Shown in pieces: positions 1-29,765 of a stretch of 64,000 nucleotides of DNA. The notes under the pieces are model-generated. The model was not told the origin of the DNA and searched no databases. It saw only the letters and a list, made by a program, of their open reading frames with translations. Position numbers and translations under genes: made by a program. This stretch comes from Tubulanus polymorphus (Eukaryota; Animalia; Nemertea). The first letter of the stretch is position 1. The number at the start of each line of letters is the position of its first letter. The stretch is from assembly GCF_964204645.1 (NCBI RefSeq), contig NC_134026.1:14542150-14606149 (forward strand). Direction: 5' to 3'.

Positions 1-3000
1 GCTATAATAAGTTGTTTACATCCAACAGAAGATATTACACATAGTTTTAGATTAACTCATTATAAACCATTTGAAAATAATTATAAGATAGATAAGTATC
101 CTGTTAGAATTAAAAACATCCCAAAAATAGAAAGAGATAATAATCTTAAAATAAATGTATTTGATTTAATTAAATTACCAAATACAAAAGGAAATAATAT
201 TAAACATTATACATTAGAACCTTTATACCTATCAAAAGATTATGATTCAAATGATGTTATAGATATACTATATTATGAGAATCATTATATGTGGATTAAA
301 CAAATAGATTTATTTTTCAAATCAGAAAATGATCACCATAAAATATATCTATGTAGAAAATGTTTACATAGATTCAGTAATGAAAGTACATTATTAAATC
401 ATAAACAACTATGTGATAATCATGATTATTGTAAATTAGTTTTACCAAATGAAAAAGATAAAATATTAGAATTCAAAAAATATGATTACAAAAATAAAGT
501 ACCATTTGTAATATATGGAGATTTTGAATCATTAAATAAAGAATTAACAGATAAAGATAGAAAAGATATATATTATAAAAGAAAGAAATTAAATTCTAAT
601 GAAAGTGATTATTCAGATGAACCACCAATAACAAATACTATTAAAAAGATTCATCAATCAGCTGCAGCTTTCGGGTTATATATTAAATCTAATTATCCAG
701 AACTAATCGAAAGTGAATATTATAATTATAGAAATGAAAATGTTATCAATCATTTTTGTGACTTATTAATTGAATATGAAATAAGATTTAGTAAATTATT
801 GAATACAAATAAAGAAATAATTATGACAGAAGAAGATAAAGAAGAATTTGAGTTTGCAGATAAATGTTATTATTGTGAAAAGATATTTAATTATAAAGAT
901 AAAAAAGTAAGAGACCATGATCATTTGAATGGAAAGTTTAGAGGCGCTGCACATGAGAATTGTAACTTACAAGCTAAGAAAATTAACTTTGTACCAGTTA
1001 TATTTCATAATCTATCGGGGTATGACGCGCATTTATTCATCAAACAGTTATGTCATAAAATAGAAGAAATCAATAATGAAATAGAAATATTAAATTCAAA
1101 TAGATCAAAAGATAAAATACCAACTTATAAATTTAGAATGTTAGCTAAAACATCTGAGAATTATATATCTTTCCAATTTGGATGCTTAAGATTTATAGAT
1201 TCATATAGATTTTTAAGTAGTTCATTAGATAACTTATCAAAATCATTAGTTGATGACGAATTAAAGATATTAAAAGAATATTACCCAAATAATGATGATT
1301 TTCAATTAATGAGATATAAAGGAGCAATTCCATATTCATTTTATAAATCACATAATGATTTTAAAATAACTGAATTATTGAAAGAACAATTTTATGATGA
1401 ATTAAAAAATGAATATGTAAAAGATGAAGTTTATAATAGAGCATTGAATATTTGGAATCATTTCGAAATTAAAAATCATGGGCAATTAGTAGATTTATAT
1501 TTAAAATCAGATGTATTATTATTAACCGATATATTCGAAAGGTTTAGAGATGTAAACCTAAAATATTTTAACATTGATCCTTGTCATTGTTATTCATCAC
1601 CAGGTTTAACATGGGATTGTGGTTTAAAATTTACAGATATAAAAATGGATTTGTTAACAAATATAGATCAATTACTATTATTTGAAAAATCTATAAGAGG
1701 AGGTGTTTCAGGTGTATTAGGTGATAGATATTTCAATGTAAATGATAATCCTGGATATAAATTATTATACATATATGCAAATAATCTTTATGGTTGGGCA
1801 ATGATGGAACCACAACCTTATGGGATGTTTGAAATAACTGAAGTTTTACAAATTGATAAATTTGATTGGAAGAAAAGAATTCTAGATATTGCAGATGATT
1901 CAGATACTGGTTACTTCTTCGTTGTAGATTTAGAATACCCTGAAAATATTAAATTCAAATCTAGAAATCTAGCATATTGTCCCGAACATAAAACTGTTAA
2001 ACATGAAGAATTATCAAATTATCAAAAAAGAATTAAACCCGATAATCATATTCATACTGAAAAGTTAATGGTAACTCAAGAAGATAAATATAATTACGTT
2101 GTGCATTATAGAATGTTGAAGTTTTATTTGAATCAAGGAATGATTCTAAAAGAAGTACATAGATATATTTCATTCAGTCAATCTAAATGGTTAGAAAAAT
2201 ATATAGATTTTAATACTACACAGAGAACTAAATCTAAAACTGATTTTGAAAAAGATTTCTTCAAACTAATGAATAATGCATTCTATGGTAAGACTTGTGA
2301 AAATATTAGAATTAGAAATGATATCGAGTTAGTCAGTAATGGTAAAAGAATTAGGCATTTACAATCATATCCTAAGTTTATAGGTAACAGAATATTTGAT
2401 GAAAATTTAGCAGCAGTTAAAATGAAAAGAACTTCAATGAAGTTCAATAAACCTATTTATGTTGGTGCCGCAGTTCTAGAAATTTCAAAATTCCTAATGT
2501 ATAAATTTTATTATAATATACTACAACCTCATTTTGGAGAAAAACACATAGAAATTCTATACTTTGATACCGACAGTTACATATTAAAGATAAAAACTGA
2601 TAACATAACAGATGATTTAAAAACATTAAAACATCATTTTGATTTTAGTAACTATCCTAAAAATCATGAATTGTTTAGCAATGATAATAAAAAAGTTCCT
2701 GGGAAGTTTAAGGATGAATTAGGTGGTGAAGAAATGATAGAGTTCATTGGTATTAGATCTAAAATGTATTCATATAAAACTAAAGAACATGAAGCTAAAA
2801 AGTTAAAAGGAATTACCAAAAGCGTTGTTGAAAAGAATATTCATTTCAAAGATTACATCAATTGTATATTTAATGAAGAAGTTAGAAAACATAAGATGAA
2901 ATGTTTAAGATCTGAAGATCATGAAATGTATATTGAAGAGATAGAGAAGATAAGTCTAAACCCATTTGATGATAAAAGATATATTTTAGATGATGGAATC

Positions 3001-3099
3001 CACACAGTCGCCTATGGTTGCAATTTAGATGAATATATAAAATTCAAAAGAGAAGAAACAAAAGAAAATGAGATTATGAAAAGGATTCTAGCGTGTTAA
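1..3099 (+). CDS. Protein-primed family B DNA polymerase (pPolB), 5'-partial
   Basis: Frame is open from base 1 (AIISCLHP...ENHYMWI). Motifs: exonuclease YGDFES and FHNLSGYDAH; endonuclease VII-like RDHDHLNGKFRGAAHENCN; KLMNNAFYGK; YFDTDS; KLKGI; DDKR. Motif A reads YIYANNLYG (catalytic Asp replaced by Tyr). Confidence 0.95.
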   Translation, partial: AIISCLHPTEDITHSFRLTHYKPFENNYKIDKYPVRIKNIPKIERDNNLKINVFDLIKLPNTKGNNIKHYTLEPLYLSKDYDSNDVIDILYYENHYMWIKQIDLFFKSENDHHKIYLCRKCLHRFSNESTLLNHKQLCDNHDYCKLVLPNEKDKILEFKKYDYKNKVPFVIYGDFESLNKELTDKDRKDIYYKRKKLNSNESDYSDEPPITNTIKKIHQSAAAFGLYIKSNYPELIESEYYNYRNENVINHFCDLLIEYEIRFSKLLNTNKEIIMTEEDKEEFEFADKCYYCEKIFNYKDKKVRDHDHLNGKFRGAAHENCNLQAKKINFVPVIFHNLSGYDAHLFIKQLCHKIEEINNEIEILNSNRSKDKIPTYKFRMLAKTSENYISFQFGCLRFIDSYRFLSSSLDNLSKSLVDDELKILKEYYPNNDDFQLMRYKGAIPYSFYKSHNDFKITELLKEQFYDELKNEYVKDEVYNRALNIWNHFEIKNHGQLVDLYLKSDVLLLTDIFERFRDVNLKYFNIDPCHCYSSPGLTWDCGLKFTDIKMDLLTNIDQLLLFEKSIRGGVSGVLGDRYFNVNDNPGYKLLYIYANNLYGWAMMEPQPYGMFEITEVLQIDKFDWKKRILDIADDSDTGYFFVVDLEYPENIKFKSRNLAYCPEHKTVKHEELSNYQKRIKPDNHIHTEKLMVTQEDKYNYVVHYRMLKFYLNQGMILKEVHRYISFSQSKWLEKYIDFNTTQRTKSKTDFEKDFFKLMNNAFYGKTCENIRIRNDIELVSNGKRIRHLQSYPKFIGNRIFDENLAAVKMKRTSMKFNKPIYVGAAVLEISKFLMYKFYYNILQPHFGEKHIEILYFDTDSYILKIKTDNITDDLKTLKHHFDFSNYPKNHELFSNDNKKVPGKFKDELGGEEMIEFIGIRSKMYSYKTKEHEAKKLKGITKSVVEKNIHFKDYINCIFNEEVRKHKMKCLRSEDHEMYIEEIEKISLNPFDDKRYILDDGIHTVAYGCNLDEYIKFKREETKENEIMKRILAC

Positions 3100-3127
3100 T
3101 AAATTTCAATAAAAATTTGTATAATAA

Positions 3128-3469
3128 ATGGAGAGTAAACAAGTACACAGTGAATTCTTAGATAGAATTAAAGATACCACAAATGTAAAATCTGTAGATT
3201 ATAAATTCAAAAAGTTAACAGAATTAACAATTCACAAGAAATATTTAATTACTAACATTGAAACAATTACTAATAAATATGGAGATAAATTAGTAATTCA
3301 TTTAGAATATGAAGGATTAAAAGGAAATACATATAAATTCAGAACATATTTACCAGATAGATTTCATAGATTATCAAGTGAAGATCTAGAAGAATTATGT
3401 TCTGGAGATTTCTATTTCGTATACAAAGGTAAGAATGAAAAAGGGCACCATGAAATAGATTTCGAATAA
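3128..3469 (+). CDS. Small Polinton protein, possibly OB-fold ssDNA-binding
   Basis: Homologues at 15522-15878 and 39061-39419; beta-rich pattern T-x-x-YG-x-KLVIHL...YLP-x-R. The fold is an inference. Confidence 0.55.
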   Translation: MESKQVHSEFLDRIKDTTNVKSVDYKFKKLTELTIHKKYLITNIETITNKYGDKLVIHLEYEGLKGNTYKFRTYLPDRFHRLSSEDLEELCSGDFYFVYKGKNEKGHHEIDFE

Positions 3470-3486
3470 GAAAATATGTAAAATAA

Positions 3487-4248
3487 ATGGTAGAATTAAA
3501 AGAATACAGAATATTTGTTGATTCTAGAAAACTTACAAATTTTAAATCTCATAATTTATTAGTACAATTAGATAGAGAATTTAAGAATTGTGTAGATTTA
3601 AAATTAGTAAATATAAGTTTATGTAATTCTTTTTACAATGTATCGGATAAGTCTATTGAACATGGAGTCTTTTTAGTTTTTAATAAAAATAAAAATGAAT
3701 GGGTCTATATATATTTAAAACCAGGGTTATATAATTTAGATACATTAGCACAAGAAATTAATAGAAAAGCCTGGCACAAATTAGGTAGTAGTTCTGGGTT
3801 TAGTATTAGATTTTTAAAAAGTGAGAGTTCTGATAGAATAAAGATAAGGTTGTCTAATAGTGAAAAACATAAAATTATGGTAAAAAAACCTATAGCTAAA
3901 CTGTTAGGAATTCTTCCAGATAGATCTTTTACAAATATTGACGCTACTACACCAAACTTAATACCTTACACACATTTTTATATTTATTGCAATTTAATCG
4001 ATCCTACAAAAACATTCGAAGCAACTAAAGATATAACTTGTAATTCTGGTTTACTAAACATTTTACCATTGAAGAATGTTAAAGAATTTGGAACGCAAAT
4101 AAATTATAATTTAACAGAATGTGATTTCAAACCATGCATTCCTAGTTTTAATAATTTTAGATTAGAAATTAGAAATCATAATGGATACTTAATTGATTTG
4201 AATAACTTTCCTGTAATTTATGAATTAGTTATAAGATGTAAAGAGTAA
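3487..4248 (+). CDS. Minor capsid (penton-like, single jelly-roll) protein
   Basis: 253 aa with IFVDSR, PGLYN, FYIYCNLI, LLNILP and LEIRNHNGYLIDLNN, the pattern of Polinton/PLV minor capsid proteins. Confidence 0.75.
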   Translation: MVELKEYRIFVDSRKLTNFKSHNLLVQLDREFKNCVDLKLVNISLCNSFYNVSDKSIEHGVFLVFNKNKNEWVYIYLKPGLYNLDTLAQEINRKAWHKLGSSSGFSIRFLKSESSDRIKIRLSNSEKHKIMVKKPIAKLLGILPDRSFTNIDATTPNLIPYTHFYIYCNLIDPTKTFEATKDITCNSGLLNILPLKNVKEFGTQINYNLTECDFKPCIPSFNNFRLEIRNHNGYLIDLNNFPVIYELVIRCKE

Positions 4249-4264
4249 TTTTTCACCTATATAA

Positions 4265-4606
4265 ATGAATATAACTGTTGGACCGAGTATATGTTTTGGA
4301 TTTGATTTTAAACATGGTAAAGAAATGAGAATTAAACTAAATGATGTAATTACTGATATAAAAAGTAAATAATTTAACAATGCATCAATGATTGATAAAG
4401 AAAAGTATAATATAGAAAAAGTAATTGATTTAATTAAATCACCTTTAGAATATTATGAATTAAATGAAGATGGAATTATTGAAGATATTAAAAACATATT
4501 AACCAAAATATATGATAATCATAAAACTAGTAATGAAATAAATGTTGAATTAATCATAAATAAGTTAACTAAATATTTTGATGATAGTAATTTTTTTGAT
4601 AAATAA
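4265..4606 (+). pseudogene. 113-aa Polinton hypothetical protein with a nonsense codon
   Basis: Intact homologue at 37926-38267; here TCA is replaced by TAA at 4370-4372. Confidence 0.8.
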
Positions 4607-4828
4607 ATGAGTGATAATAAGTGGATAATAACTGGATTATATAATGGTGCATTACTATCAGTTGGAACTGTTGGTTATTCAATGGTATTAAAAAAAGTAT
4701 TCAAAATGGGAAGTGTTAATGTTGATAGATTTGATATAAATGATATTTTAAAGTTAACATTAGCAGTTACTTTATCTAATTTAACTATTGATTATTTGGA
4801 AAAACAAAAATATATTCCTCCCATATAA
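4607..4828 (+). CDS. Small hydrophobic (putative membrane) protein
   Basis: 73 aa, two hydrophobic stretches; near-identical homologue at 37695-37925. Confidence 0.75.
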   Translation: MSDNKWIITGLYNGALLSVGTVGYSMVLKKVFKMGSVNVDRFDINDILKLTLAVTLSNLTIDYLEKQKYIPPI

Positions 4829-4852
4829 ATGCATAATTTTTTTGTTAAATAA

Positions 4853-5275
4853 ATGGCTTCTGCAATTATAACTATTATAGGATCGGCAATTGTTAACGCT
4901 TTAGCATTTACAGGTGGTGGTTATTTATTTAAACATATTGATAAAAATAGTTCATTAGGAGAACAAAGAAGACATAACTTAGCGTTAGAGAAATACAATA
5001 AAGCTGCAGAAGAATATAGAGAAAAGAGACAAAACTATATGGATTACATCAATAAAGAATTATATAATCAGAAGATTTCACACAGAGATTTTCAATCAGT
5101 TGATGATGCAATGAGTTTATATAACACAGTAACAAATAAAGAAAAATTACATCTATACAAACCTAAATTATCAGATTATTATACCCCAAGTAAAGAACAA
5201 CAGAAATATGAAATAATATGGATTTTAGGTGGAACTGTTATTGTTATATTTATTGCTTATAAGTTTACTAATTAG
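4853..5275 (+). CDS. Putative membrane protein (N- and C-terminal hydrophobic helices, central coiled coil)
   Basis: MASAIITIIGSAIVNALAFTGG...IIWILGGTVIVIFIAY; homologue at 37256-37678. Confidence 0.8.
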   Translation: MASAIITIIGSAIVNALAFTGGGYLFKHIDKNSSLGEQRRHNLALEKYNKAAEEYREKRQNYMDYINKELYNQKISHRDFQSVDDAMSLYNTVTNKEKLHLYKPKLSDYYTPSKEQQKYEIIWILGGTVIVIFIAYKFTN

Positions 5276-5294
5276 TAATTTTTATTCTAAATAA

Positions 5295-5729
5295 ATGGAA
5301 GATAAAGTTGATAGTATTGATATTATTCCTCATGATATAAATAAAACTAAATTAAAAACATATTTAGAAAAACAAATATTAGAATTTGAAAGTGACTTAA
5401 AAGTTAAAAAGAAAAAATATTTAAAAAGTAAAATTATATATTATTTGATTATAAGTGGTTCGGTTACAATTAGTTCTGTAATAACATTTTTAGCAATATT
5501 CAGTCCATTAACACCTTTATCTATATCAATTGGTGTGTTAGGATTAAGTTCAAGTGTTTTAACTGGTATAAGTTCAAAATTAAATATAAAAAGTAATAAA
5601 GAAAAAATTAAAACTAATATAAAAGAAATTAATAAATTAAAGAATACACTAGATTATATAATAAGTTTAAATGGTCATATAACAGTTGAAGAACAAGATA
5701 AATTATTAAAAGAATTAATAAATTATTAA
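5295..5729 (+). CDS. Two-TM membrane protein
   Basis: Central hydrophobic hairpin flanked by Lys-rich helices; homologue at 36803-37236. Confidence 0.78.
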   Translation: MEDKVDSIDIIPHDINKTKLKTYLEKQILEFESDLKVKKKKYLKSKIIYYLIISGSVTISSVITFLAIFSPLTPLSISIGVLGLSSSVLTGISSKLNIKSNKEKIKTNIKEINKLKNTLDYIISLNGHITVEEQDKLLKELINY

Positions 5730-5745
5730 TTTTTTAGTTATATAA

Positions 5746-7047
5746 ATGGGGTTTCCAAAAGCTTTCCAATATAATAAATCAATTAAATATGATATTCCGG
5801 CAATAGATTTTAAGAAAAATATTACATATAAAAATATAGTTTTAAATTCATTAACTAATTTAGAAATTTATGTTAATGAATCACAGTTTTTTATTTCTAA
5901 AATGGAAAATATATTTAATACATATGAAGTTACTTTTACTCGAGATGAATATCATATATATAAAGTAAAATCTAATATGAAATATTGGCAGAATCAATTA
6001 AATTTTGCTGTTTATTGTGCAACAACAGGATGTGGAATAAGTTGGAATGATCATTTAAATAACTTAGATAAAAATTTGAAGTATTCTGATTTAAAATTAA
6101 TTCACACAATATTTAGATTTCACACATATTTTCAAATCAGAATAATATTAAATGAATTAGAATGTCCTTTACCTGGGTCTAAATATTTTAAAGAATTGGA
6201 TAATAATATTAATATATCCAAGTTTTATAAAATATGTAATGAATTTAATATAAATATTAATTCCGATTTTAGAGCGCATGGTAAATTGCAAGGTGTTGGT
6301 GAAGAGTATGAAATAAAAAGAATTGATTATATGCATAGAATTTCAGCTTATCATAATTATAAAATTGATAATAATAATGGTTGGGTTAATTTCATTTTAG
6401 AAAATGGTGAAGGTTTTACAAAATCAGGTATACAAAGAATAAATCAATCTATTAGAATTTATTTGATATGTATTTTAGGCGCTCAAGTTGAAACAAGATC
6501 CCCAATAATTGGAAATGATAACACTTCATTCGATGCGCAGAAACAGTTTAAAGTTTTATTTGAAGATTCAATTCATAATGATAAAAATAGATCGATTCCA
6601 GAAAACATTATAAGATATCAAAATTATTTAGATAAATCTCATGTAAGACTTAATTATTGTATAGGCCCTAATCTATTAATTATTTCTAATGATTTAGTAT
6701 TGAAGATGGGAAATATAATTGGTTATAATAATCTAATTAAAACTGCAACAATAAATAATTCATTTGGGTTAAATGATATAAATAAAAAGATTATTACTGC
6801 TCCAAAATTAATGGAAGGTGAAAAAAATAAAAAACATATTCAATCAACTGAAACTAAAACTAAGAATATTAAATTGGTTAATGATTCCAAAATAAAAGAT
6901 TACAATACATCAGAAAATAATAGAACTGATAAAATTCAACATGATATAATTAAACTAAATGATGATAATAAATCCCATGAAAATACTAAATTAGCTATAA
7001 CTTGTATAGGAATTGTAATCGGAGGAATATTATATTTTAAATTTTAA
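5746..7047 (+). CDS. Conserved Polinton protein of unknown function with C-terminal TM anchor
   Basis: 433 aa, motif YWQNQLNFAVYCATTGCGISW; ends AITCIGIVIGGILYFKF; split homologue at 35372-36786. Confidence 0.8.
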   Translation: MGFPKAFQYNKSIKYDIPAIDFKKNITYKNIVLNSLTNLEIYVNESQFFISKMENIFNTYEVTFTRDEYHIYKVKSNMKYWQNQLNFAVYCATTGCGISWNDHLNNLDKNLKYSDLKLIHTIFRFHTYFQIRIILNELECPLPGSKYFKELDNNINISKFYKICNEFNININSDFRAHGKLQGVGEEYEIKRIDYMHRISAYHNYKIDNNNGWVNFILENGEGFTKSGIQRINQSIRIYLICILGAQVETRSPIIGNDNTSFDAQKQFKVLFEDSIHNDKNRSIPENIIRYQNYLDKSHVRLNYCIGPNLLIISNDLVLKMGNIIGYNNLIKTATINNSFGLNDINKKIITAPKLMEGEKNKKHIQSTETKTKNIKLVNDSKIKDYNTSENNRTDKIQHDIIKLNDDNKSHENTKLAITCIGIVIGGILYFKF

Positions 7048-7063
7048 TTTTTTTATTATGTAA

Positions 7064-8530
7064 ATGGATGTAGAAGGTGGAGAAGATTATGAAATGGGAG
7101 AAATGGGAAATAATAATGAAGGATATATTGATGATGATTATAATGATGCAGAAACTAATATCGATAATGATAATGAATCAGCATATAATTCTAATTTAGC
7201 AGATAGTGGTTCTAAAGGTCAATCAACAGATGAATTTGATAGAAGAACTAGATCGAGAATAAATCCTGAAAATGAAAATCCAGATTTAGTAAAACAAAAT
7301 TTAGAATATAATGAATATATTTATAATTTCAAACCTATATTTGAAAAATCTGGATATAATATCAATGTCAGAGGCGCTAGACTTTTAGTACAAGAATTAA
7401 AGTTTTTAGATGGTGAATATTATTATCGTTTGAAAGATGATTATTATATTGATATCTCTTATAAAAAACAAGAAAAAATATTAGCAGAATCAACTTTGCT
7501 TAAGTTAGACCTATCTAGAATTAAAAGAATAAGAAATAGTAATGAACCAGAAGATGTAACACAAGAAGAAATTATTAAAAATGAAAGAGTATTTAAACAA
7601 AGAATTAATGAATTATTTGAAACAATCGATAATAATTTAGAAACAGAAACAACTTCTGAACAGAATAAAACTTCTAAAACTAGTAAACTTAAATCAAATA
7701 AAGTTCCAATTGAAAAACTTTTACCGAATGGGTTACTTGATGCAACAGATCAAGAATTAGAAGATTTAGATATATTTTCTGACAAAGCAATTAGAGAAAT
7801 TATTAGTATAAGACTTGCATCTGATAAAATTGCGCATGATAAAAGTATAAGAGATTTTAAAATTAGAACTTTAGAAAAAGAATTAACTGATAAAAATAAA
7901 GAAATAGAACAATTAAAATTAGATAGAGATAATAAAGTTATTGAAGAAATTGAATTTAAAAAAAGAAATGCATATTTAGAAAAAGAAATTGATGATTTAG
8001 AATATAACATAGAATTACAAAAAGAAGAAATTAAATTATTATTAAAATCATATGATTATAATATAAATAGATTAAAAGTTATTTTTAAAGATTTGTTGAT
8101 AAAACCAAATTCTGAAATATCATTAAAAGATAGAATAAGATTATTATTTAAGTTAGAAGGTATAACAATTCTTTCAATTCTAACAGCTGTAACTATGTTA
8201 TTTACAACAATTGGTTTAGCAATATCAAATGCTTTGAAATCTACTCCTACTCCTACTCCCAATAAACCGGATAAACCTCCAGATAATAATTCTATACAAG
8301 ATAAAGTTAAAGATGGTTTAAAGAAATTAGCAAAATATTTATGGGAACTATCAAAGAAATCTGCTGCAGCATTGCCAGGAGTTATTGCTTCAATTGTTGG
8401 TTTTATATTGAAATCTGCAGGAAACATTATTAACTTTGCTGCTGAACATATTATTTTATTTTTAATTACGGTTGTAAGTGCTATTATTTTTGGGTTAGTA
8501 AATATGATATCAAAAAATATCAAAAAATAA
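7064..8530 (+). CDS. Acidic N-terminus, coiled-coil and C-terminal multi-TM protein
   Basis: 488 aa; D/E/N-rich start, heptad-rich middle, hydrophobic C-terminal segments around a Pro linker; homologues at 10301-11359 and 34004-35356. Confidence 0.8.
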   Translation: MDVEGGEDYEMGEMGNNNEGYIDDDYNDAETNIDNDNESAYNSNLADSGSKGQSTDEFDRRTRSRINPENENPDLVKQNLEYNEYIYNFKPIFEKSGYNINVRGARLLVQELKFLDGEYYYRLKDDYYIDISYKKQEKILAESTLLKLDLSRIKRIRNSNEPEDVTQEEIIKNERVFKQRINELFETIDNNLETETTSEQNKTSKTSKLKSNKVPIEKLLPNGLLDATDQELEDLDIFSDKAIREIISIRLASDKIAHDKSIRDFKIRTLEKELTDKNKEIEQLKLDRDNKVIEEIEFKKRNAYLEKEIDDLEYNIELQKEEIKLLLKSYDYNINRLKVIFKDLLIKPNSEISLKDRIRLLFKLEGITILSILTAVTMLFTTIGLAISNALKSTPTPTPNKPDKPPDNNSIQDKVKDGLKKLAKYLWELSKKSAAALPGVIASIVGFILKSAGNIINFAAEHIILFLITVVSAIIFGLVNMISKNIKK

Positions 8531-8554
8531 ATAATTAATTTTTTTGTTAAATAA

Positions 8555-9904
8555 ATGAGTGGGAGTTATATAAGTCCCTCTAAGATTTCTAGAATATCTA
8601 ATGCTATTAAAGCAGAAAGATCACATCATATAATTACTCATAACCCTTCAAATATTAATCCCGATGAAACTTTATATGTTAGAATTCCTAGATTAACACA
8701 AAATACTTTTTACGTTCCAAATAGTATTTATTTATCAGCTGATATATAAAAGTAATCGGTAATAATAATAATTATGTTGTTGATAATGTTGGAAGATATT
8801 TGATTAACAATAAAGATTGGTCCAGAAACAGTTTTCTCATTAGATGATTGTAATTTATTTATGCACTATAAAGATTTATGGTTAACTAAAGAAAACAGAA
8901 ATAATATGATATTTCAAGGAATCCAATCAGAAAACCAAAATAAATTAAGATCAGAAGCTAATAGCGCAATATTAACAAATGATGTAGATAAATTGATAAA
9001 AAGTATATATGGAAGCAAATATAAAATTCCATTAGACTTTGAATTGATAAATAATAATGCACCTTTATATAAATACGCAATTCAAGAAGATATTATATTT
9101 GAGATAACATTTGCTCCTGTAAATGAAATTGTAATATCTAGCGTTAATAAAGATATGAGTTATAAATTATCGAATATATGTTTAGAATATGATACAGTAA
9201 CTGATGAAAATATTGCTAGAACAATTCAAACTCAATACAACCAAGGGTTTTCATTATTATATGATTATATTGATAAATTTAAAACTGTAACTATTAATGC
9301 AAATGATGAAATAATAAATGAGAATATTAACTTTCCTAGAAGATCTATTAAAGGTATATTAATATTTTTTACTATTGGAACGTATACTAATGGTGCAATA
9401 AATGTTGACAATTATTATAATCCTGAAATAACAAAAGTAGAAATAACTATCGAAGGAATAGCAAATAAAATATTTTGTCAAGGAATGAGAATGATAGATC
9501 AATGGGTAGAAATAAAAAAACATTTTATGAATGAAAAAGTAAAATCATTTGAAAATTGTAACATTAATCAAATTGATTATTATACCGGTAATAAATATGC
9601 ATTATGGTTAGATTTTAGAACAACAGAGGATAATTCATTACATGGTTCTGGAAAAAAACTACAGAACACTAAAGATGGAATACAATTATTCATGACAAAG
9701 AATAAAGGAATCAAAAATTTTAAAATGCACATTTATATTATATCTGACGCACAACTAAATATTGTAAATTCTCAATTAAATAGTGTTATGAATCAAAATT
9801 TTAACTTTAATAAACATTTATATAATAAATGGAAGGAGGTAAAGTATATAACCATATTCCATACATCGATACACATGAAAATAATGATGGTTTATATCAT
9901 ATAA
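8555..9904 (+). pseudogene. Major capsid protein, frameshifted and lacking its stop codon
   Basis: ORFs 8555-8749 and 8861-9904 align end to end with the intact MCP at 11400-12647. Confidence 0.85.
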
Positions 9905-10003
9905 TACCTTGTAATATAGCTTTGATATTTGATCCTATTTTCAAAATTTATAAAACTAAACTAATAGAAATAGATAATAATAAAAGTTAAGTAGTTGATA
10001 ATT

Positions 10004-11359
10004 TATTACTGCTCCAAAATTAATGGAAGGTGAAAAAAATAAAAAACATATTCAATCAACTGAAACTAAAACTAATAATATTAAATTAAATAATGATTCT
10101 AAAATAAAAGATTACAATACATCAGGAAATGGTGCCGTACGGCACCCACATGGTGATATTAAAACTGATAATATTCAACATGAAATAATTAAACTAAATG
10201 ATGATAATAAATCCCATGAAAATACTAAATTAGTAAAACTTGTATAGGAATTGTAATCGGAGGAGTATTATATTTTAAATTTTAATTTATTATTATGTAA
10301 ATGGCAGAAGGTGGAGAAGATATTCCATTGGGTGACATGGGAAATAATGATGAAGGATATATTGATGATGATTATAATGATGCAGGTGCTAATCTTAATG
10401 AGACTAATATTGATGATGATAATTCATCAGCATATAATTCTAATTTAACAGATAGTGGTTCTAAAGCCCCATCAACAGATGAATATATTAGAGGAGCTAA
10501 ATCGAGAATACCTACTGAAAATGATTTATCAAAGAAAAATTTAGAATATAATGAATTTATACATATATTCAAACCTGTATTTGAAAGATCTGGGTATAAT
10601 ATAAATGATAGAGATGCTGATTGAGTGATTTAGATCCAGATAGAATTAAAAGAATAAGTAATAGTAATGTAATAACTGATGTTACCGACACAGAAATAAA
10701 TAAAAATAGAAGAGTATTTAAACAAAGAATTAATGAATTATTTGAAATAATCAAAAAGAAATCAGAAACAGAAACAACTTCTGAACAGAATAAAACTTCC
10801 AAAACTAGTAAACTTAAATCAAATAAAGTCCCAATTGAAAAACTTTTACCGAATGGATTAATTGATGCAACATATCAACAATTAGAAGATTTAAATAATA
10901 TATTTTCTGATGAAGCAATTAGAGAAAGAGTTAATAATAAAACCAGTTTCTAAAATATCATTAAAAGATAGAATAGAATTATTATTTAAGTTAGAAGGTA
11001 TAACAATTCTATCAATTCTAACAGCTGTAACTATGTTATTTACAACAATTGGTTTAGCAATATCAAATGCTTTAAAATCTACTCCTACTCCAAATAAACC
11101 GGATAAGCCCCCAGGTAATAATTCTATACAAGATAAAGTTAAAGATGGTTTAAAGAAATTAGCAAAATATTTATGGGAACTATCTAAAAAATCTGCTGCA
11201 GCATTGCCCGGAGTTATTGCATCAATTGTTGGTTTTATATTGAAATCTGCAGGAAACATTATTAACTTTGCTGCTGAACATATTATTTTATTTTTAATTA
11301 CAGTTGTAAGTGCTATTATTTTTGGGTTAGTAAACATGATATCAAAAAATATCAAGTAA
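10004..11359 (+). pseudogene. B-type fragments of the 433-aa and 488-aa genes
   Basis: Near-identical to the reverse complement of ~34004-35655, including the same frameshifts, with an extra ~0.3-kb deletion at ~10925. Confidence 0.85.
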
Positions 11360-11399
11360 ACATGATAAAAAATAAATATTTAATTTTTTTGTTAAATAA

Positions 11400-12647
11400 A
11401 TGAGTGGGAGTTATATCAATCCTTCTAAGAATCATAGAATATCTAATGCTATTAAAGCAGAAAGATCACATCATATAATTACTCATAACCCTTCTAATAT
11501 TAATCCTGATGAAACTTTATATGTTAGAATCCCTCGATTAACACAAAATACTTTTTATGTTCCAAATAGTATTTATTTATCAGCCGATATAAAAGTAATC
11601 GGTAATAATAATAATTATGTTGTTGATAATGTTGGAAGATATTTGATTAAAAAATTATCAATAAAGATTGGTCCAGAAACAGTTTTCTCATTAGATGATT
11701 ATAATTTATTTATGCATTATAAAGATTTATGGTTAACTAAAGAAAATAGAAATAATATGATATTTCAAGGAATCCAATCAGAAAACCAAAATAAATTAAG
11801 ATCAGAAGCACATAATGCAATATTAACTAATGCTATAGATAAATTGATAAAAAGTATATACGGAAGCAAATATAAAATTCCATTAGAGTTTGAATTGATA
11901 AATAATAATGCGCCTTTATATAAATACGCAATTCAAGAAGACGTTATATTCGAAATAACATTTGCTCCTGTAAATGAAATTGTAAGATCTAGCGTTAATA
12001 AAGATATGAGTTATAAATTATCGAATATATGTTTAGAATATGATACAGAAACTGATGAAAATATTTCAAGTATAATTCAAACTCAATACAATCAAGGATT
12101 TTTATTATCATATGATTATATTGATAAATTTAAAACTGTAACTATTAATACAAATGATGAAATAATTAATGAGAATATTAACTTCCCAAGAAGATCTATT
12201 AAAGGTATATTAATATTTTTTACCATTGCAACATATACTAATGGCGCAATAAATATTGATAATTATTATAATCCTGAAATAACAAAAGTAGAAATAACTA
12301 TCGAAGAAATAGCAAATAAAATATTTTGTCAAGGAATGAGAATGATAGATCAATGGGTAGAAATAAAAAAACATTTTATGAATGAAAAAGTAAAATCATT
12401 TGAAAATTGTAACATTAATCAAATTGATTATTATACCGGTAATAAATATGCATTATGGTTAGATTTTAGAACAACAGAGGATAATTCATTACATGGTTCT
12501 GGAAAAAAACTACAGAACACTAAAGATGGAATACAATTATTCATGACAAAGAATAAAGGAATCAAAAATTTTAAAATGCATATTTATATTATATCTGACG
12601 CGCAATTAAATATTGTAAATTCACAATTAGATAGTGTTATGTATTAA
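11400..12647 (+). CDS. Major capsid protein (double jelly-roll), intact ORF
   Basis: 415 aa, beta-rich (NPSNINPDETLYVRIP, YKIPL, LSNICLEYD, NINFPRRSIKGILIFF, YALWLDFR, LHGSG); size and position fit a Polinton MCP. Confidence 0.82.
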   Translation: MSGSYINPSKNHRISNAIKAERSHHIITHNPSNINPDETLYVRIPRLTQNTFYVPNSIYLSADIKVIGNNNNYVVDNVGRYLIKKLSIKIGPETVFSLDDYNLFMHYKDLWLTKENRNNMIFQGIQSENQNKLRSEAHNAILTNAIDKLIKSIYGSKYKIPLEFELINNNAPLYKYAIQEDVIFEITFAPVNEIVRSSVNKDMSYKLSNICLEYDTETDENISSIIQTQYNQGFLLSYDYIDKFKTVTINTNDEIINENINFPRRSIKGILIFFTIATYTNGAINIDNYYNPEITKVEITIEEIANKIFCQGMRMIDQWVEIKKHFMNEKVKSFENCNINQIDYYTGNKYALWLDFRTTEDNSLHGSGKKLQNTKDGIQLFMTKNKGIKNFKMHIYIISDAQLNIVNSQLDSVMY

Positions 12648-12679
12648 AATTTTAACTTTAATAAAAATATATATAATAA

Positions 12680-12940
12680 ATGGAAGGTAAAGTATATGAA
12701 AGAATCAAAGCTGATAAAGAAATCAATGATGATTTGTATTATGTAATACCTTATAAAAGAATAAATGAATATATTGGAACATTTTTATTAAATGAATTAA
12801 ATCAATACAAAGAATATTTAATTGAACGTAATAATAATATTGATATAAAAATAGAAGATAATATTGAAACAAAAATAGCATATTGCATCAGTGAAATAGG
12901 CATTATTTTGATAAGATTCTCAGCATATGCATTATTGTAG
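12680..12940 (+). CDS. Truncated Polinton ORF downstream of MCP
   Basis: TAAATG start; MEGKVY...DDLYYVIP resembles the copy-B ORF MEGGKVY...DGLYHIIP (start 32683, -); the tail runs into non-Polinton DNA. Confidence 0.5.
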   Translation: MEGKVYERIKADKEINDDLYYVIPYKRINEYIGTFLLNELNQYKEYLIERNNNIDIKIEDNIETKIAYCISEIGIILIRFSAYALL

Positions 12941-13419
12941 ATATCAAGCAGATGTATGCAAGGATTAATAATAATAATAATATTTTATTTCCACAAGAAA
13001 TTGTAACAAATTTTATATTTATAAAGGATGTTCCAATATCAGTGGTAGGTGCTCATTTAAAGCGAGGTTGCTTGTCGGGTATGAGACACCTATCCCTCAC
13101 ACGCATTCAAAACACATATACTCATCAAGCATGCATGCATTCACACATTCAAATTTACAAAACTACAAATGGCGGGAAGGGGGGAAAATATTCCCCTAAG
13201 ATATGAGTTAAATAAACAGAATACATCAAATAGCATTATGTAGGGTCGTTCATTTGGTTTGGACGCATGGAGGGGAAGCGATCACCCCAAGACACAGGAA
13301 AAAATGGCTGACCTTGTGCAAAGGGGGAGGGACCAAAATCCAGGAACCAATGCGTACATACTGAATGAAGGTCCCTTAAAGAATTACTAAAGAAAGCCGG
13401 ACTATGAGGTCAATATTTA

Positions 13420-15030
13420 TATAACGAAACAAGTTTAAAGTTTGAACGTAGAGATTTCAATGTAGGCGAATCTCTTAGTGATTTTGGGGCATTTTGCCAT
13501 CGATTCGGAACGAGGCGCAGAAAACATTTGTTGTAGATACTTTTGGTATGCTGCTCAAAACATTTTCAAACAATTTCGTTGCCGAGTATTATGCTGTTGA
13601 TTATTTGAATTATGAAGGAAAAAAAGTCGAAATCTGCTAGGTAGCGTGTTACTAATAAACATGTGACCAATCTTTAATATTTCTTATTCTAGGATATCTT
13701 CTAGTTTTAGGATTCCTAGATTTTTAAATAGAGGACCAGTGGGGCTGTTATATTTAGCGTTTGAAATTACTCGAATGGCTTTTTTCTGCAATTTGAATAA
13801 TCGTTGTAGGTTTGCTTTTGATATAAGCGGCCCCCACGAACATAAAGCGTAAAAAATATGACTATGGAAATAACTATAGTACAGAGATTTCAAGCAAAAT
13901 TGTGGTACTACTCGTTTAGTGCAGTTAAGCTAATATAAATTTCTAGATAGCTTACTACATAATCTATTTACATGAAGGTCAAAGTTTAAGTTATCGTCTA
14001 GACGATGATCCTTGACATTAATACAATATTGTAAAGTTGTGTTAACACTGATATCCCTAGGTTTGAATAACATCACCTTGGTTTTTGATAAATTGAGCGT
14101 TAATTTGTTGGCGTTAAACCAGTCATACATAGTACTTAAATCATTGCTCATGTTTGAAATAAGGGAGTCAATTGACCCACCCGTGATGAACAATGTGGAA
14201 TCATCAGCGAATAGGATTGATGAACACTTTTTGAGGCACATATACATATCATTTATGAAAATTAAAAATAGCACGGGACCTAGGACTGGCCCCTGGGGGA
14301 CTCCATGATCGACCTGTTTGTGATGGGAGGATACACCTTGGAAATGTACATATAAAGAACGTTCTTTCAAGAAACTACTAAACCATGAGAGTGGGACTCC
14401 TCTAATGCCAATGTTATATAACAAAATGTCCAGGCTATCAAAAGCTTTACTGAGATCCTAATAGGCGGTTAGAGTATAATTATTTTTTTCTATTCCTTTG
14501 ATTATATTTCCTGTGAGTTCTAATATGGCCTGTGTGGTTGAATATTGAGGTCTAAAGCCGTATTGGCTTTCATATAAAACTGAGTGTTTGTCTAAGTAAG
14601 CGTATAATCGCTTGTGCATTAGCTTTTCAATAACCTTAGAAATAGACGGTAGCAATGATATGGGTCGATAATTAGTGAATAGACTTTTATCATCCTTTTT
14701 ATAAATTGGTATGACTTCGGACAATTTGAGTTTGCCAGGGAATACCCCTTCAATGAAAGACTTGTTTATGACATATACTAAAGGCTCAATAATGGTTGGA
14801 CCGATGGCTTTGAGTATAATGCTGCTTACATTGTCGTATCCGGCAGACGCTTTGGATTCAAGGGAATTCAGACACTTAAGAACCTCGTTTGTGGTAGTTG
14901 GAAATATGAAAAAGTTACTGTTTAATAATCTAGGCATATAAAAATCATAGGAGTGAACAGGGCGAGCAATTTAGCTAGAAAGTTTCTTTCCGACTCCACT
15001 AAAAAATTTACAAAATCCATTGCTTATAGT
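13420..15030 (-). mobile_element. 5'-truncated, decayed non-LTR retrotransposon (CR1/L2 group) reverse transcriptase
   Basis: NYRPISLL, QYGFR, GVPQG.VLGP.LF, LFADD, LNLSKTK and LYYSYFHSH in frameshifted ORFs 14458-14937, 13930-14424 and 13684-13893. Confidence 0.9.
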
Positions 15031-15521
15031 AATACAATGCTATAAGCTTATAATGCTATAAGTAGGTATATTTGTACTATATAATGTTATTGTTATATGT
15101 GTGTGCTTTGAATGGCGATGAACTATTAGGTATCATACAATTCTATCCATGTGTATCAGGTAAACAAATATATGTGCAATTTACTTACCCTGTTCAAATG
15201 AATGTTCCTGCCGCTTAATGAAATATTGCAGTTACACTGAAATTATATCATGTAGACATATTTAACCCTTCGATTAAAGCTAATATATGGCCTATACGAC
15301 ATGACCTAAAAAATAGGGAATGTATTGTTCTAGATCAAAGGTCGAAAGGTCGAGTGAGTAAAAAATTAAAAATTAAAAATTCTCGCACACTCGAATTTAT
15401 TTTTCATTTTTACTCTCTCAAGCTCTCAACATTTAATCTAGAACAACACATTCCCTATTACTCTTAAAATATTAATCTAATAACCTCTAAAATCAATTTT
15501 AATAAAAAATTTGATATTAAA

Positions 15522-15878
15522 ATGGAGAGTAGTAAACAAGTACACAGTGAGAACAACAAATCATTTCTAGATGGAATAAAAGATATCACAAATGCTAAAT
15601 CTGTAGATTATAAATTTAAGAAGTTAACAGAATTAACAATTCATAAGAAATATTTAATTACTAATATTGATACAGTTACTAACAAATATGGGGATAAATA
15701 AGTTATCCACTTAGAATATGAAGGATTAAAGGGAAATACATATAAATTCAGAACATATTTACCAGATAGATTTCATAGATTATCTAGTGAAGATTTAGAA
15801 GAATTATGTTCAGGTGATTTCTATTTCATATAAAAGGGTAAGAATGAAAAAAAGCACCATGAAATAGATTTCGAATAA
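15522..15878 (+). pseudogene. Copy of the 113-aa OB-like gene with internal stops
   Basis: Aligns with 3128-3469; in-frame TAA codons present. Confidence 0.8.
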
Positions 15879-15927
15879 AATATGTAAAATCAATTTTAAT
15901 AAAAAATTATGAAAAAAAAATATAAAA

Positions 15928-18696
15928 ATGGAAGCAAATAAGTACTACTGTTCAACATGTAAAATTCATATAGATAAATCTGAAAAAGCAAGACATAATA
16001 AAACTAAAACACATTTAGAGAATAAATTGAAATTAGAATATAAAGATGATATATTAGAAACTATATTAGATGAATTGAAGAATGAAAAAGAAACATACAA
16101 ATGTGACACATGTAATCAATCATTCAGCGACAAAAGATATTATAAAGAACATTTAAAATCTAAAAGTCATATTAGAAATATGAATAATGATATTTTAGGT
16201 GAAGATAATTTTGATAAAGATAATGATAAGAAACAGAAGACAATTAAAAGAATAAAAAATAAAATAAACAATAAAAGACGATACATGGAAGATGTAAGAA
16301 ATTATATTTATTCATTAGATAATAAAAAAGAAATAGAAATAACCGAAGCATTCAAAAGTGATATTGGACCAGCTGCTATTGAATTTAAATTTCATAAAGG
16401 TAAAACATTAGAAGAAAAAAAAAACATTTAGAAAATATGAAAAATATTATGAGAATAATTACTGATGTTGAATACCCTAGAATTAGTATATCTTCTTAAA
16501 GTTACATTCATAAAATCTGGAGATAAACCAATATATAATATAAATTCTCATTCACAAGATATTATATCTAAACAACATATAGCTGATAGATTAAATAAAT
16601 GTTATAATGAAATAAAAAGTAAAATAGAAGAGAAATATTTTGAAGGATCAGGTTTAATATTTGATGAAATAATATTTATGACTTTACATGTTTATAATGC
16701 AAAATATAATAAGTAAACTAAATCAAAACCAATTGATGAAAATAATTTATCATATTAAAAAGATGATAATATTAATGGATCAAGTTATATCAAATTACCA
16801 TTTAAAACTAATGCTGTTATAAATGTACAAAATTATGATGATAAATGTTTTCTATGGTCAATTATAAGTTGCTTACATCCTGCAACTGATAATATTTGTA
16901 GAGTATCAAATTATAAACCATTTGAAATTAATTATAAGATAGATAATTATCCTGTTAGAATTAAAAATATCCCAAAAGTAGAAAGAGATAATAATATAAA
17001 GATAAATGTATTTGATTTAGTCAAATTACCAAGAACAAAAGGGAATAATATAACCTCTATACTTAGCAAAGGATTATGATTCAAATGATGTCAGAGATAT
17101 ATTATATTATGAGAATCATTATATGTGGATAAAACGTATAACTAAATTCAGTAATGAAAGGGCATTATTAAATCATAAACAATTATGTGAAATCATGATT
17201 ATTGTAAAATAGTTTTACCAAATGAAAAGGATGAAATATTAGAATTCAATAAATATAATCACAAGAATAAAGTACCATGTGTAATATATGGAGATTTTGA
17301 ATCATTAAATAAAGAATTAACTGATCAAGATAGAAAAGAAATATATTAAAAAGAAAGAAATTAAATTCTAATGAGAATGAAAAGTAATTGATTATTCAGA
17401 TCCTCTAATAACAAATACTATTAAAAAGATTCATCAATCAGCTGCAGCTTTTGGATTATATATTAAATCTGATTATCCAGAACTAATTGAAAGTGAATAT
17501 TATCATTATAGAAATGAAAATGTTATCAATCATTTTTGGAACTTATTAATTGAGGATGAAATAAAATTTAATAAAAAGTTAAATGAAAATAAAGAAATAA
17601 TTATGACAGAAGAAGATAAAGAAGAATTTGAGTTTGCTGATAAATGTTATTATTGTGAAAAGATATTTAATTATAAAAACGTTAGAGACCATGATCATTT
17701 GAATGGAAAGGTTAGAGACGCAGCGCATGAGTATTGTAACTTACTTACAAGCTAAGAAAATTAACTTTGTACCAGTAATATTTCATAATTGATCAGGGTA
17801 TGATGCACATTTATTCATCAAACAGCTATGTCATAAAATAGGAGAAATCAATAATGAAATAGAAAGATTAAAATCAAATACATCAAAAGATAAAATATCA
17901 ACTTATAAATTTAAGATGTTAGCTAAAACATCTGAGAATTATATATCTTTCCAATTTGGGTATCTAAGATTTATAGATTCATATAGATTTTTAAGTAGTT
18001 CATTAGATAATCTATCAAAATCATTAGTTGATGATGAATTAAAAATCTAAAAAATTAAAACAACACTATCCAAATAATGAGGATTTTCAATTAATGAGAT
18101 ATAAAGGAGCAATTCCATATTCATTTTATAAATCACATAATGATTTCAATATAACTGAATTATTAAAAGAACAATTTTATGATGAATTAAAAAATGAGTA
18201 TGTTATAGATGAAGTATATAATAGAACATTGAATATTTGGAATCATTTTGGAATGAAAAATCATGGACAATTAGTAGATTTATATTTAAAATCAGATGTA
18301 TTATTATTAACTGATATATTTGAAAGGTTTAGAGATGTAAACCTAAAATATTTTAATATTGATCCATGTCATTGTGTTTCTAGTCCAGGTTTAACTTGGG
18401 ACTGTGGTTTAAAATTTACAGATATAAAAATGGATTTGTTAACAAATATAGATCAATTATTATTATTTGAAAAATCTATAAGAGGAGGAGTTTCAGGTGT
18501 ATTAGGTGATAGATATTTCAATGTAAATGGTAATCCCGGATACAAATTATTATATATGGGTGCAAATAATCTATATGGTTGGGCAATGATGGAACCTCAG
18601 CCTTATGGAGTATTTGAAATAACTGAAGTTTTACAACATGAAAATAATGATAGATTTGATTGGAAGAAAATAATTCTAGATATTGCAGATGATTCA
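15928..18696 (+). pseudogene. pPolB pseudogene: N-terminal zinc fingers, vOTU-like region, exonuclease and partial palm
   Basis: Two CxxC...H zinc fingers, EGSG, GSSYIKLP, INVQNYDDKCFLWSIISCLHP, ENHY; many stops and frameshifts; motif A reads YMGANNLYG. Confidence 0.88.
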
Positions 18697-19731
18697 GAGA
18701 CTAAAAAACTGTATGGCGCGCGTAGTAGAAAAAAAGATATGATAAAAACGCAGGGTTTCCTTGATCGTTACAAAATGTCCGTTACTCTTTATTGGGAAAG
18801 ATTGTAGCGTGTATCCGTACCAAGAAGAAAACATCAGGCGTGAAGCCCAAATGAGGAAGTTTAGAGGATTTCTGGTGCCATTTTTGTGCATTCCTATGTT
18901 ATCATGTGGTATTTGCCGTAATTAAAACTACCAGTTAGGAGTAGCGCCTGCCACATTCATTCATTCATTGAAGCATCGCACACAAAAAACACAGTGTCAT
19001 TGTGTGGACTATACCCCTATGGAAAATAGGGTAGGTAGGATGTCTGGGCAATTACACTACTTTGTAGGGAAGGTAGATGCACGCTTTTTATTATTGAAGA
19101 GATCGTTACATTGAAATAAACTAAAAAGAACACTAAAATGTCTTTAGAGAACAAATAATCAATTTATTTTCACAATTCCAACAAGGATTTTTCAGGATTT
19201 GGTGAAAATAGGACCACTTTTGCCAGGGGGAAAATATTTATTAACGGTTAAAAAAAGAGCTCACATAACCCGTGGAAACGTGAAAGTTTGAAAATTCCGT
19301 AGACGGCGGCTTTATAGCGGCAGTTCTCCGGGTCTATTCGTGACATTGGAGAGTAGAATTAATAACAAGATTTCCGGTGCCAACTGGTTGTAAATAGTGT
19401 CATTAATTTTACTTGAGTCGGTACTACCGCTACGCAAAATCAGCTGTAGTAGTTCGCAATGCGTTCCCTCACTCGCGTCGACCGGGCGTCGTGGGCGTAT
19501 TTCCACATACCAGACCATGGGCGTGTCATATCAAAAACATTCCATGCAGTTATCAAAAATGTTCGATGATAGACGTTGTTGACATAGTATAGTGAATGTA
19601 CATGTACGTGTATTAGGTATTTTATTTTATGCGTTTTCAAGGGAACACTATGTATTTACCAAGAATGAGCTTATCTATTCACGATACAAATTGAAATAAT
19701 ATAATATCTAAATCATCATTGTATATTACAG

Positions 19732-20742: not shown

Positions 20743-20920
20743 TCCACCCCTAAGCAGATATTAAGTAAATGATTAATTACTATAATGCTTTAACGGTCTA
20801 AATGCAGATCCTTTTTTAAAATACAATTAAAACAATCAAACCAAACTTAAATTGTATAAGGGCAACAAATAAAACTACAGAATTAACACAGCATTAGATC
20901 TAATCAAATTATCATAACGT

Positions 20921-22321: not shown

Positions 22322-22670
22322 AGTAATAGGGAATAAGTTGTTTCATACCAAAGGTCGAAGGGTCGAGCTCACTCTCCCCTTCAACCTTTGACATGAAACA
22401 ACTTATTCCCTATAACTCTAATAGTATTCATATATATGAACATTACTTACATGAATTTCATATATTTGAAAATAAATTATGAATTATTTTTATATTAATC
22501 ATAAAATGTGAGTAAAGTGTGAAATAAGATAGAAATTAACGATTAATTAACGAGTTGATCAAAATTAGATTTTTTTCACATTAAAGTGTGAGTTAAGTGT
22601 GAGAAATAATTCATATTTTAACGTTGAATATTTATATTTGAATGAGTTTTAATAAATGTTTTGTTATAAA

Positions 22671-23300
22671 ATGAACACAGAAGAAGAAGAAACGATATTC
22701 AAAATCGAAATCAATGAAACCATAAATTATTTTCATTGTTTAACATTAAAAATTATATCTCAGCAACAAATTTAGAGTATGGAAGACAATATAAAATCGA
22801 TAGTATTACAATGATTAATCAAATATCATTAAAGGAAACTTATTTAATCACTGAACTTGTCGATACTTTAGATAATGGCGCCAAAAATCCTAAAATATTT
22901 AATACAGTTTTAAATTGTGAAGGTAATTTAGATGAAAACATAATAAATATACTTCAAACTCCTTTCAATGAAATAGATAGTGATTTGATACTTTCTAAAA
23001 GTTACAATGATTTGATTAACTTAAGAATTGAAAAAAGACAATTATATTAGTTCAATTTTGATAATAAACAAATTATCTATAGTGCAAATTCATCAAATAT
23101 TGGCATTCAATGTGAATCATTTAATGAAAATTCATCAAATATTGGAATTCAATGTAATTTTGATGATGAATTTAAAAATTTTAACCCTAATGAAAAAGTG
23201 TATTGTTATTGCGGAGGTAAATATTTAAAATCACATAAATCAAAACATTATCAAACAGTTAGACATATCGAATATGGAAAGAATAATAATTCTATATTGA
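22671..23300 (+). pseudogene. Decayed mini-element ORF ending in a CxCG...H-x5-H zinc finger
   Basis: ATG at 22671, ORF 22736-23050, then EKVYCYCGGKYLKSHKSKHYQTVRH. Confidence 0.5.
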
Positions 23301-27614: not shown

Positions 27615-27681
27615 ATTATAACACTGAAGGTCTTAGATATAAAAAAATGTAATCTCGATTGTATATATCTGTTTTAATATT

Positions 27682-29758: not shown

Positions 29759-29765
29759 AAATAAG

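Follow-up and report, generated by a model that had tools for sequence, protein, structure and literature searches.

A stretch of 64,000 nucleotides (nt) from the nemertean Tubulanus polymorphus (contig NC_134026.1, positions 14,542,150 to 14,606,149; this whole stretch is called the window below) is made up in part of decayed copies of a polinton-type element or virus, whose genes characteristically begin at ATG codons set within the word TAAATG. Judged from sequence, this is a real, clade-defining promoter layout of the poxvirus type on an endogenous polinton-type virus, and dependence on a helper virus is likely. A cytoplasmic large DNA virus that infects the same cell probably reads these gene starts with its RNA polymerase, by leaderless transcription. 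That this virus is a poxvirus or a close relative is a narrower proposal, which we hold only tentatively. Copies of the AT-rich element (20-25% GC) lie at 1-13000, 15300-18700, and 25665-31200 on the plus strand and at 32500-43330 on the minus strand; they are 82-99% alike and include broken frames and internal duplications.

All 17 ATGs that the original prediction had placed within TAAATG are indeed found there. Between positions 3100 and 12960, each of the 13 starts tested carries the word (p ~2e-15), whereas TAA precedes 17 of the 232 non-start ATGs on the plus strand (7.3%) and, in 200 dinucleotide shuffles, 7.3% of first ATGs after a stop. The expected enrichment over internal ATGs and shuffled sequence is therefore present; these 13 starts were drawn in part from the predicted list, and the counts across loci given below are the fairer test. 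A second predicted feature, a run of five to seven Ts placed 6-8 nt upstream, is more restricted than claimed. The quoted promoter strings are correct, and such a run precedes the starts at 4265, 4607, 4853, 5295, 5746, 7064, 8555, and 11400 (8 of the 12 listed between 3100 and 12700) as well as 28767, but it is missing at 3128, 3487, 10301, 12680, 26132, 29362, and 30837 and shrinks to four Ts at 23480. The starts at 4265, 8555, and 29362 head broken frames of 35, 64, and 35 amino acids (aa), and a copy at 38267 on the minus strand gives 113 aa. Exceptions to TAAATG that had gone unlisted are 27255 and the integrase start at 29766, which has TAAAAT a few nt upstream. To these are added 15522 and the N-terminal open reading frames (ORFs) of pPolB (the protein-primed DNA polymerase B) at 15928 and 43293 (minus strand), which carry TAAAATG or TAAAAATG.

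Capsid homologs were collected by word search (147) and by profile (3600 representatives), and 80 of 186 confirmed loci were fetched and examined. The capsid start could be scored in 62 of these 80 loci, since the N terminus is missing in 18. TAAATG marks the capsid start in 13 of the 14 loci with at least 50% identity, compared to 1 of the 46 others that have an ATG there (48 others in all), namely L044. The 14 close loci fall in a single supported branch. Across the conserved genes as a whole, a start was accepted when its N terminus aligned with a homolog less than 90% identical, and 52 of 383 starts were removed as duplicates. With this filter, TAAATG is found at 40 of 49 starts across the 16 loci of the clade, at 8 of 8 in L044, and at 12 of 16 in the window, compared to 2 of 258 in 60 outer loci, where 199 of the 258 starts have a purine at -3. 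When read by eye, the nine clade misses comprise four internal methionines in broken or cut frames, four starts that retain TAAA(A)T slightly farther upstream, and a single true miss (L007); three of the four window misses are likewise internal methionines.

These counts bear on the simplest alternative, namely that AT-rich composition and the calling of ORF starts generate the motif by chance. The element DNA is certainly poor in GC, and the rule of taking the first ATG after a stop slightly favors TAA. However, the matched null yields only the 7.3% noted above, and the motif is kept in loci of 36-44% GC while being found at none of 46 AT-rich outer starts. Where GC ranges overlap, 28 of 34 starts in clade loci (29-44% GC) have TAAATG versus 0 of 46 in outer loci (26-38% GC; p 5e-16). 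The null and this comparison refute chance, to which we give practically no weight. Thus, the excess holds across family copies, is limited to one branch, and is not explained by AT content.

We then defined the architecture from 81 TAAATG starts (66 from 14 loci plus 15 from the window) and 119 non-start TAAATG controls. A T is located 9 nt before TAAAT at 73 of the 81 starts (90%) compared to 28% of controls (p 2e-19, a value that shared ancestry makes too small), including all 13 of 13 capsid genes. Ts are also frequent at the tenth position (77% versus 30%) and the eleventh (70% versus 36%), and a run of at least four Ts with a spacer of 6-8 nt is present at 41 of 81 starts versus 4 of 119 controls. 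Vaccinia late promoters are described as having TAAAT(G) over the start codon with a conserved T 10 nt upstream (PMC11980589) and a spacer of 5-7 base pairs (bp) (PMC5294985). The vaccinia-late layout proposed in the original prediction (TAAAT over ATG, T-rich upstream stretch, and spacer) agrees with what these two sources describe, and the T found here lies near the conserved T of the vaccinia promoters.

A second form of start signal has the core TTTAAYAAAAA, which is positioned 21-22 nt before AAATG in 8 of its 21 occurrences, ahead of the polymerase, 113-aa, and 253-aa (L003) genes and others. Among the remaining occurrences, eight read as T-run promoters on the opposite strand, one is found 31 nt before, and four are elsewhere. 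The starts at 15522 and 15928 in copy B combine this A-rich core with TAAAA(A)TG. Vaccinia intermediate promoters are described as carrying TAAA, which TG follows only sometimes, and as having an AT-rich stretch located 15-19 nt upstream (PMC11980589). The A-rich-core form, which sometimes has TAAAA, may therefore represent an intermediate-like promoter, a reading that draws on few gene families. A separate candidate function, that of a trans-splice acceptor, was ruled out: there is no fixed AG before the ATG, and G does not exceed 0.14 at any of the five positions before TAAAT.

A translational signal would offer a different explanation for TAAATG. An in-frame stop before the ATG might aid stop-start reinitiation on read-through messages or block N-terminal extension, and a TAA placed directly before the ATG necessarily shares its reading frame. 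Three of 79 starts do abut an upstream stop, including 4607, the sole start in copy A whose TAA doubles as the stop of the preceding ORF. The other 76 abut none, and the alternative stops are unused (TAG at 0 of 49 and TGA at 1 of 49 starts). Furthermore, eight divergent gene pairs (two of them near-copies) carry TAAATG in both directions across gaps of 19-30 bp, with one overlap. Stop-start coupling fails on these three grounds. In addition, four exceptional starts keep TAAA(A)T out of frame, and the T at -9 has no explanation under a translational signal, which we consider very improbable.

Host RNA polymerase II (Pol II) must also be considered. In this case, the promoters would be unusual compact core promoters, and TAAATG would be a lineage- or host-specific initiator or start context that partly doubles as the AATAAA poly(A) signal of the gene upstream. 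The element encodes an integrase and is located in a chromosome, its outer relatives are equally compact, and AATAAATG occurs at 35 of the 81 starts. Because it occurs at only this number, a second role as a poly(A) signal does not hold for the starts in general; AATAAA is absent at the other 46 starts and present in 23 of 119 controls. An upstream poly(A) signal would be needless in divergent pairs, and clade genes contain approximately three AATAAA words per kilobase, showing no depletion. T at -3 is the poorest start context in animals, and a purine occupies this position in the outer relatives, the subclade of bivalve protein P0069 among them. On balance, transcription by host Pol II appears unlikely.

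Another source of transcription could be a polymerase from the element itself, encoded by an unrecognized gene, or from a partner resembling a cytoplasmic linear plasmid, as in the yeast pGKL system with its TAAAN initiator and slippage (PMC6211774). Several conserved genes still lack an assignment. No RNA polymerase gene was recognized in the window, L003, or L044 (by Pfam, by eye for L044, and by a fold search with the 433-aa protein), which implies that the polymerase must come from outside. Among the unassigned proteins, the larger ones (433 and 488 aa) contain hydrophobic segments, and the 433-aa model matches no polymerase fold, having no match beyond its C-terminal helix in the PDB, BFVD, or a wide search. 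The same genes also occur in relatives that lack the motif. We therefore regard a polymerase of this origin as quite improbable.

Given that the motif is confined to one branch and absent from most others, a helper virus rather than the host cell likely switches the elements on. In this scheme, TAAATG and the fixed upstream T would serve as post-replicative promoters. As in vaccinia, the polymerase would initiate on the first A of TAAAT, and slippage on the three template Ts would add a 5' poly(A) leader, a process described for poxvirus and pGKL transcripts (PMC6211774, PMC4542343). Such a leader could permit translation despite the T at -3, a position mostly taken by a purine in outer relatives. 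Each gene would be transcribed separately from a promoter of approximately 15-25 bp, and in divergent pairs the promoters would stand back to back. The T-run (late-like) form is carried by capsid and membrane genes, and the A-rich-core (intermediate-like) form by the polymerase and several non-structural genes, which could produce ordered expression. Integrated copies would remain silent until a helper infects the cell, as described for mavirus (PMC6723459), and the helper could be a poxvirus relative or a member of another Nucleocytoviricota lineage. That small viruses can have promoters matching those of giant viruses is established (PMC6723459, PMC11502894, PMC11788076, bioRxiv 2026.07.28.741278), and we also counted the literature on salmon gill poxvirus in favor of a helper.

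Several observations weigh against this proposal. The original prediction of a helper among the NCLDVs (nucleocytoplasmic large DNA viruses) stands insofar as the promoter-like architecture is real and branch specific, but the layout cannot be taken as specific to poxviruses, because non-pox giant-virus bins also carry the word. TAAATG is present at 18 of 98 ORF starts on six stretches from four such bins, a proportion biased upward since the bins were chosen via a motif match, and thus the motif is not exclusive to poxviruses. In one stretch (L194, bin G003), six of seven TAAATG starts have the same T, with a T-rich stretch much like that of the element. Capsid_NCLDV was found in two of the four bins and VLTF3 in two of four. 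Under the numbering in which TAAA spans -1 to +3, used where the polymerase is described as recognizing TAAA directly (PMC12917281), the element's T falls at -10; if the count begins with the T of TAAAT, its distance differs by one base from the 10 nt given in the vaccinia review. Coral polintoviruses, which may or may not belong to the TAAATG clade, are reported to be expressed in control as well as stressed colonies (PMC11131425). Orthologous starts share ancestry, so the p-values overstate their independence. L044, L015, and L058 meet at an open fork, and the last two lack the motif. In favor of the proposal, a single origin of the motif is not rejected (p-AU 0.57).

Sequence composition adds further points of this kind. 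In coding regions, AATAAA fails to separate the groups (observed/expected [O/E] 0.96 versus 0.89 and 0.90), nor do genes avoid TAAAT internally (O/E 0.98). AATAAA after stops is rare in GC-rich outer members too (2 of 59 and 2 of 78). Compactness is family-wide, with a median tandem gap of 26 bp in the clade and 6-29 bp outside, where divergent gaps are mostly below 50 bp (the gap lists contain noise from broken frames). The short gaps cited in the original prediction are real (16-32 bp, except 0 at 4607), but neither they nor the lack of introns are diagnostic, since motif-less relatives with Kozak-like starts are equally compact. Finally, searches of viral contigs, of the promoter pattern, and of deoxynucleoside kinase homologs found no helper virus: capsid relatives were absent from viral_contigs and genome_contigs, a degenerate promoter pattern gave 109 single matches in viral_contigs with no contig rich in them, and none of 38 homologs of the deoxynucleoside kinase of L003 pointed to a helper. 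No transcript was found either. Splice words and TTTTTNT in coding regions gave no group separation (O/E for TTTTTNT of 0.48 in the clade and 0.67 in AT-rich outer loci).

Other start-proximal words were observed in the relatives. The sister lineage of L015, L055, and L058 has the same genes with TATAG or ATAGA near the ATG (6 of 11 starts each, where fewer than 1 is expected), words that recall the TATA late initiators of asfiviruses. AT-rich outer loci have TATATA or TATAA near their starts, and GC-rich outer loci have TTGAA at variable distance. GC-rich outer loci L022, L032, L035, L039, L041, L045, L069, and related ones show divergent gaps of 3-46 bp and almost no AATAAA after stops, and these may not be ordinary Pol II units either. 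L044 is near complete and has another type of pPolB; 12 of its 13 genes start with TAAATG, the exception being the polymerase gene at the contig end. L044 thus has its capsid module and promoter type in common with the window, but the pPolB types differ (no EndoVII-type match was seen by eye in L044). Inside the TAAATG branch, capsid P0046 is deposited under nine Bartonella sp. names, on contigs of 0.5-1.6 kb where lengths are given, which are probably co-assembled eukaryotic DNA. Should this DNA come from an arthropod, the branch would reach the hosts of entomopoxviruses.

A more speculative extension, which we consider doubtful, is that this branch of polintons in invertebrate genomes represents the provirophages of an undiscovered pox or pox-like lineage, with intermediate and late promoters, poly(A)-leader mRNAs, and a germline record. 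Sister branches, such as the one with TATAG-like words, would then have switched promoter words along with their helpers. The findings bear on two questions about animal Polintons, namely the manner of their expression and their ability to form virions. A viral promoter fused to the start codon provides a direct test and a cheap means of sorting thousands of elements into helper-dependent and host-driven ones. If the proposal is true, animals too harbor provirophages that follow the mavirus strategy, and the motif indicates that large DNA viruses, pox-like or other, occur in hosts with none known. Promoter sharing and the polinton-like viruses (PLVs) of entomopoxviruses are already known, and TAAATG promoters on polintons are apparently new: full-text literature held no report of them in the main texts covered, with most subscription journals, including a 2024 MMBR review, outside coverage.

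The features of the window are collected in the table below. Matches to pPolB (PF03175) cover 289-3099 and 39449-41419. A retroviral-type integrase (PF00665 at 29766, with a chromodomain, PF00385, at 30317) has a frame that is broken in the window and intact as a single frame in L001 and L044, and an A32-like packaging ATPase matches PF04665 at 30837. In Foldseek, the 415-aa capsid model matches the PBCV-1 capsid (E 5e-17) and the mavirus major capsid protein (E 5e-13). The profile of the 253-aa family matches PBCV-1 P1v1 weakly (E 0.12), and this protein is probably the penton. Four window genes encode hydrophobic segments. No Pfam match to an adenain-like cysteine protease was found among 30 window and 20 locus proteins (L044 ORFs by eye only). 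The 433-aa family protein has invariant C, H, Q, and N residues and a confident model (pLDDT 78). The kinase gene in L003 (10340-10981, minus strand; PF01712) has a TAAATG start and lies within a clade element; its three close homologs are 60-67% identical.

Features of the window with coordinates, strand, and basis of assignment
Feature	Position	Strand	Basis
pPolB with EndoVII insert, copy A; frame already open at window start	1-3099	+	PF03175 E 7e-13, PF02945 E 4e-5
A-rich-core promoter-like stretch (A run, then T, then TAAATG) ahead of 113-aa gene	3100-3130	+	
113-aa gene; homolog in L003, no Pfam match	3128-3469	+	
253-aa gene, TAAATG start; likely penton (minor capsid)	3487-4248	+	weak profile match, inferred
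Broken copy of a 113-aa gene; T5 run, 8-nt spacer, TAAATG	4265-4606	+	
73-aa conserved gene; T7, 6-nt spacer	4607-4828	+	
140-aa conserved gene; two hydrophobic segments; T7, 6-nt spacer, TAAATG	4853-5275	+	
144-aa gene; two hydrophobic segments; T5, 8-nt spacer, TAAATG	5295-5729	+	
433-aa conserved gene; hydrophobic C-terminal helix; T6, 7-nt spacer, TAAATG	5746-7047	+	
488-aa conserved gene; three hydrophobic segments; T7, 6-nt spacer, TAAATG	7064-8530	+	
Major capsid gene copy, broken; T7, 6-nt spacer, TAAATG	8555-9904	+	
Duplicated and broken pieces of 433-aa and 488-aa genes; TAAATG at 10301 without T run at 6-8 nt	10003-11359	+	
Late-type promoter-like element of capsid gene: T7 11384-11390, 6-nt spacer, TAAATG 11397-11402	11384-11402	+	
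Major capsid protein, double jelly roll, 415 aa	11400-12647	+	model pLDDT 83.8, Foldseek
A-rich-core type element ahead of 12680 gene	12657-12682	+	
Copy B: palindromic terminus, piece of 113-aa gene, broken pPolB	15312-18702	+	
Non-autonomous derivative; terminal inverted repeats of ~600 bp; TAAATG at 23480	22322-25224	.	
Palindromic-terminus block: HNH-like gene 26132, 200-aa gene 28767, 29362, broken integrase-chromodomain 29766-30844, A32 ATPase 30837	25665-31196	+	
Copy C, inverted relative to copy A; identical gene order	32507-43327	-	

Copy C has TAAATG starts at 39419, 39043, 38267, 37925, 37236, 36786, 35356, 33963, and 32683. The non-autonomous derivative is flanked by a 6-bp target duplication (five of six positions match) and has another palindrome within it, at 24283-24641. 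The copies that carry genes are truncated. Element ends are imperfect palindromes of 96-190 bp capable of forming hairpins (15312-15462, 22322-22417, 25129-25224, and 25665-25854). The flanks carry retroelement pieces, namely a long interspersed nuclear element at 13930-14940 and gypsy pieces at 20900-22080 and 53970-55190. Pieces of reverse transcriptase and GIY-YIG at 47200-48200 and 59945-62413 (minus strand) we take to be Penelope-like, a group found mainly in animals. Judged from these flanking retroelements, an animal host is probable. Rfam gave no match anywhere in the window. Many diverged copies of the element are present in two DNA-like public runs (14307 and 3706 contigs). In run X1, five contigs have other sequence upstream of the 253-aa gene (window position 3486), which suggests gene-order variants that join at the start signal.

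Compared to known systems, the promoters most resemble the late and intermediate promoters of poxviruses as these are described (PMC11980589, PMC5294985, PMC12917281, PMC4542343). The two are alike in the overlap of TAAAT with the ATG, in a T-rich element at a spacer of 6-8 nt, and in the conserved T, as well as in a second, A-rich-core form with TAAAA variants. They differ in that the motif here is on a small integrating element with no recognized RNA polymerase, no early-type class was seen, and the T may be one base off. Mavirus, the provirophage of Cafeteria roenbergensis virus, and Sputnik with mimivirus (PMC6723459) are described as having one motif before nearly all genes (all genes in mavirus), and the element shares an integrating pPolB and rve organization with this group. 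In contrast, TAAATG rather than TCTA is used here and is fused to the start codon, no protease was detected, and an animal host is likely. The PLVs found in entomopoxvirus occlusion bodies (Barth et al. 2024, PMC11296320) are polinton-like and proposed to be hyperparasites of poxviruses, with one integrated in a beetle genome. In contrast to the window element, where no protease was detected, they are described as having a protease and no rve integrase, and the main text of that report contains none of the terms promoter, TAAAT, motif, and transcription.

Animal Maverick-Polintons and aquintovirus-related elements (bioRxiv 10.64898/2026.06.19.733378) are described with the same pPolB, rve integrase, A32 ATPase, double jelly roll capsid, and terminal repeats, and a bivalve homolog is 38% identical. 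By gene content, the element differs from animal Maverick-Polintons in having no detected cysteine protease, several hydrophobic proteins, and a start-fused motif. The yeast pGKL elements are pPolB-based and are not known to have a capsid or integrase. They are described as AT-rich, like the element, with a TAAAN initiator that yields 5' poly(A) leaders, whereas pGKL2, unlike the window element, encodes its own RNA polymerase and capping enzyme (PMC6211774).

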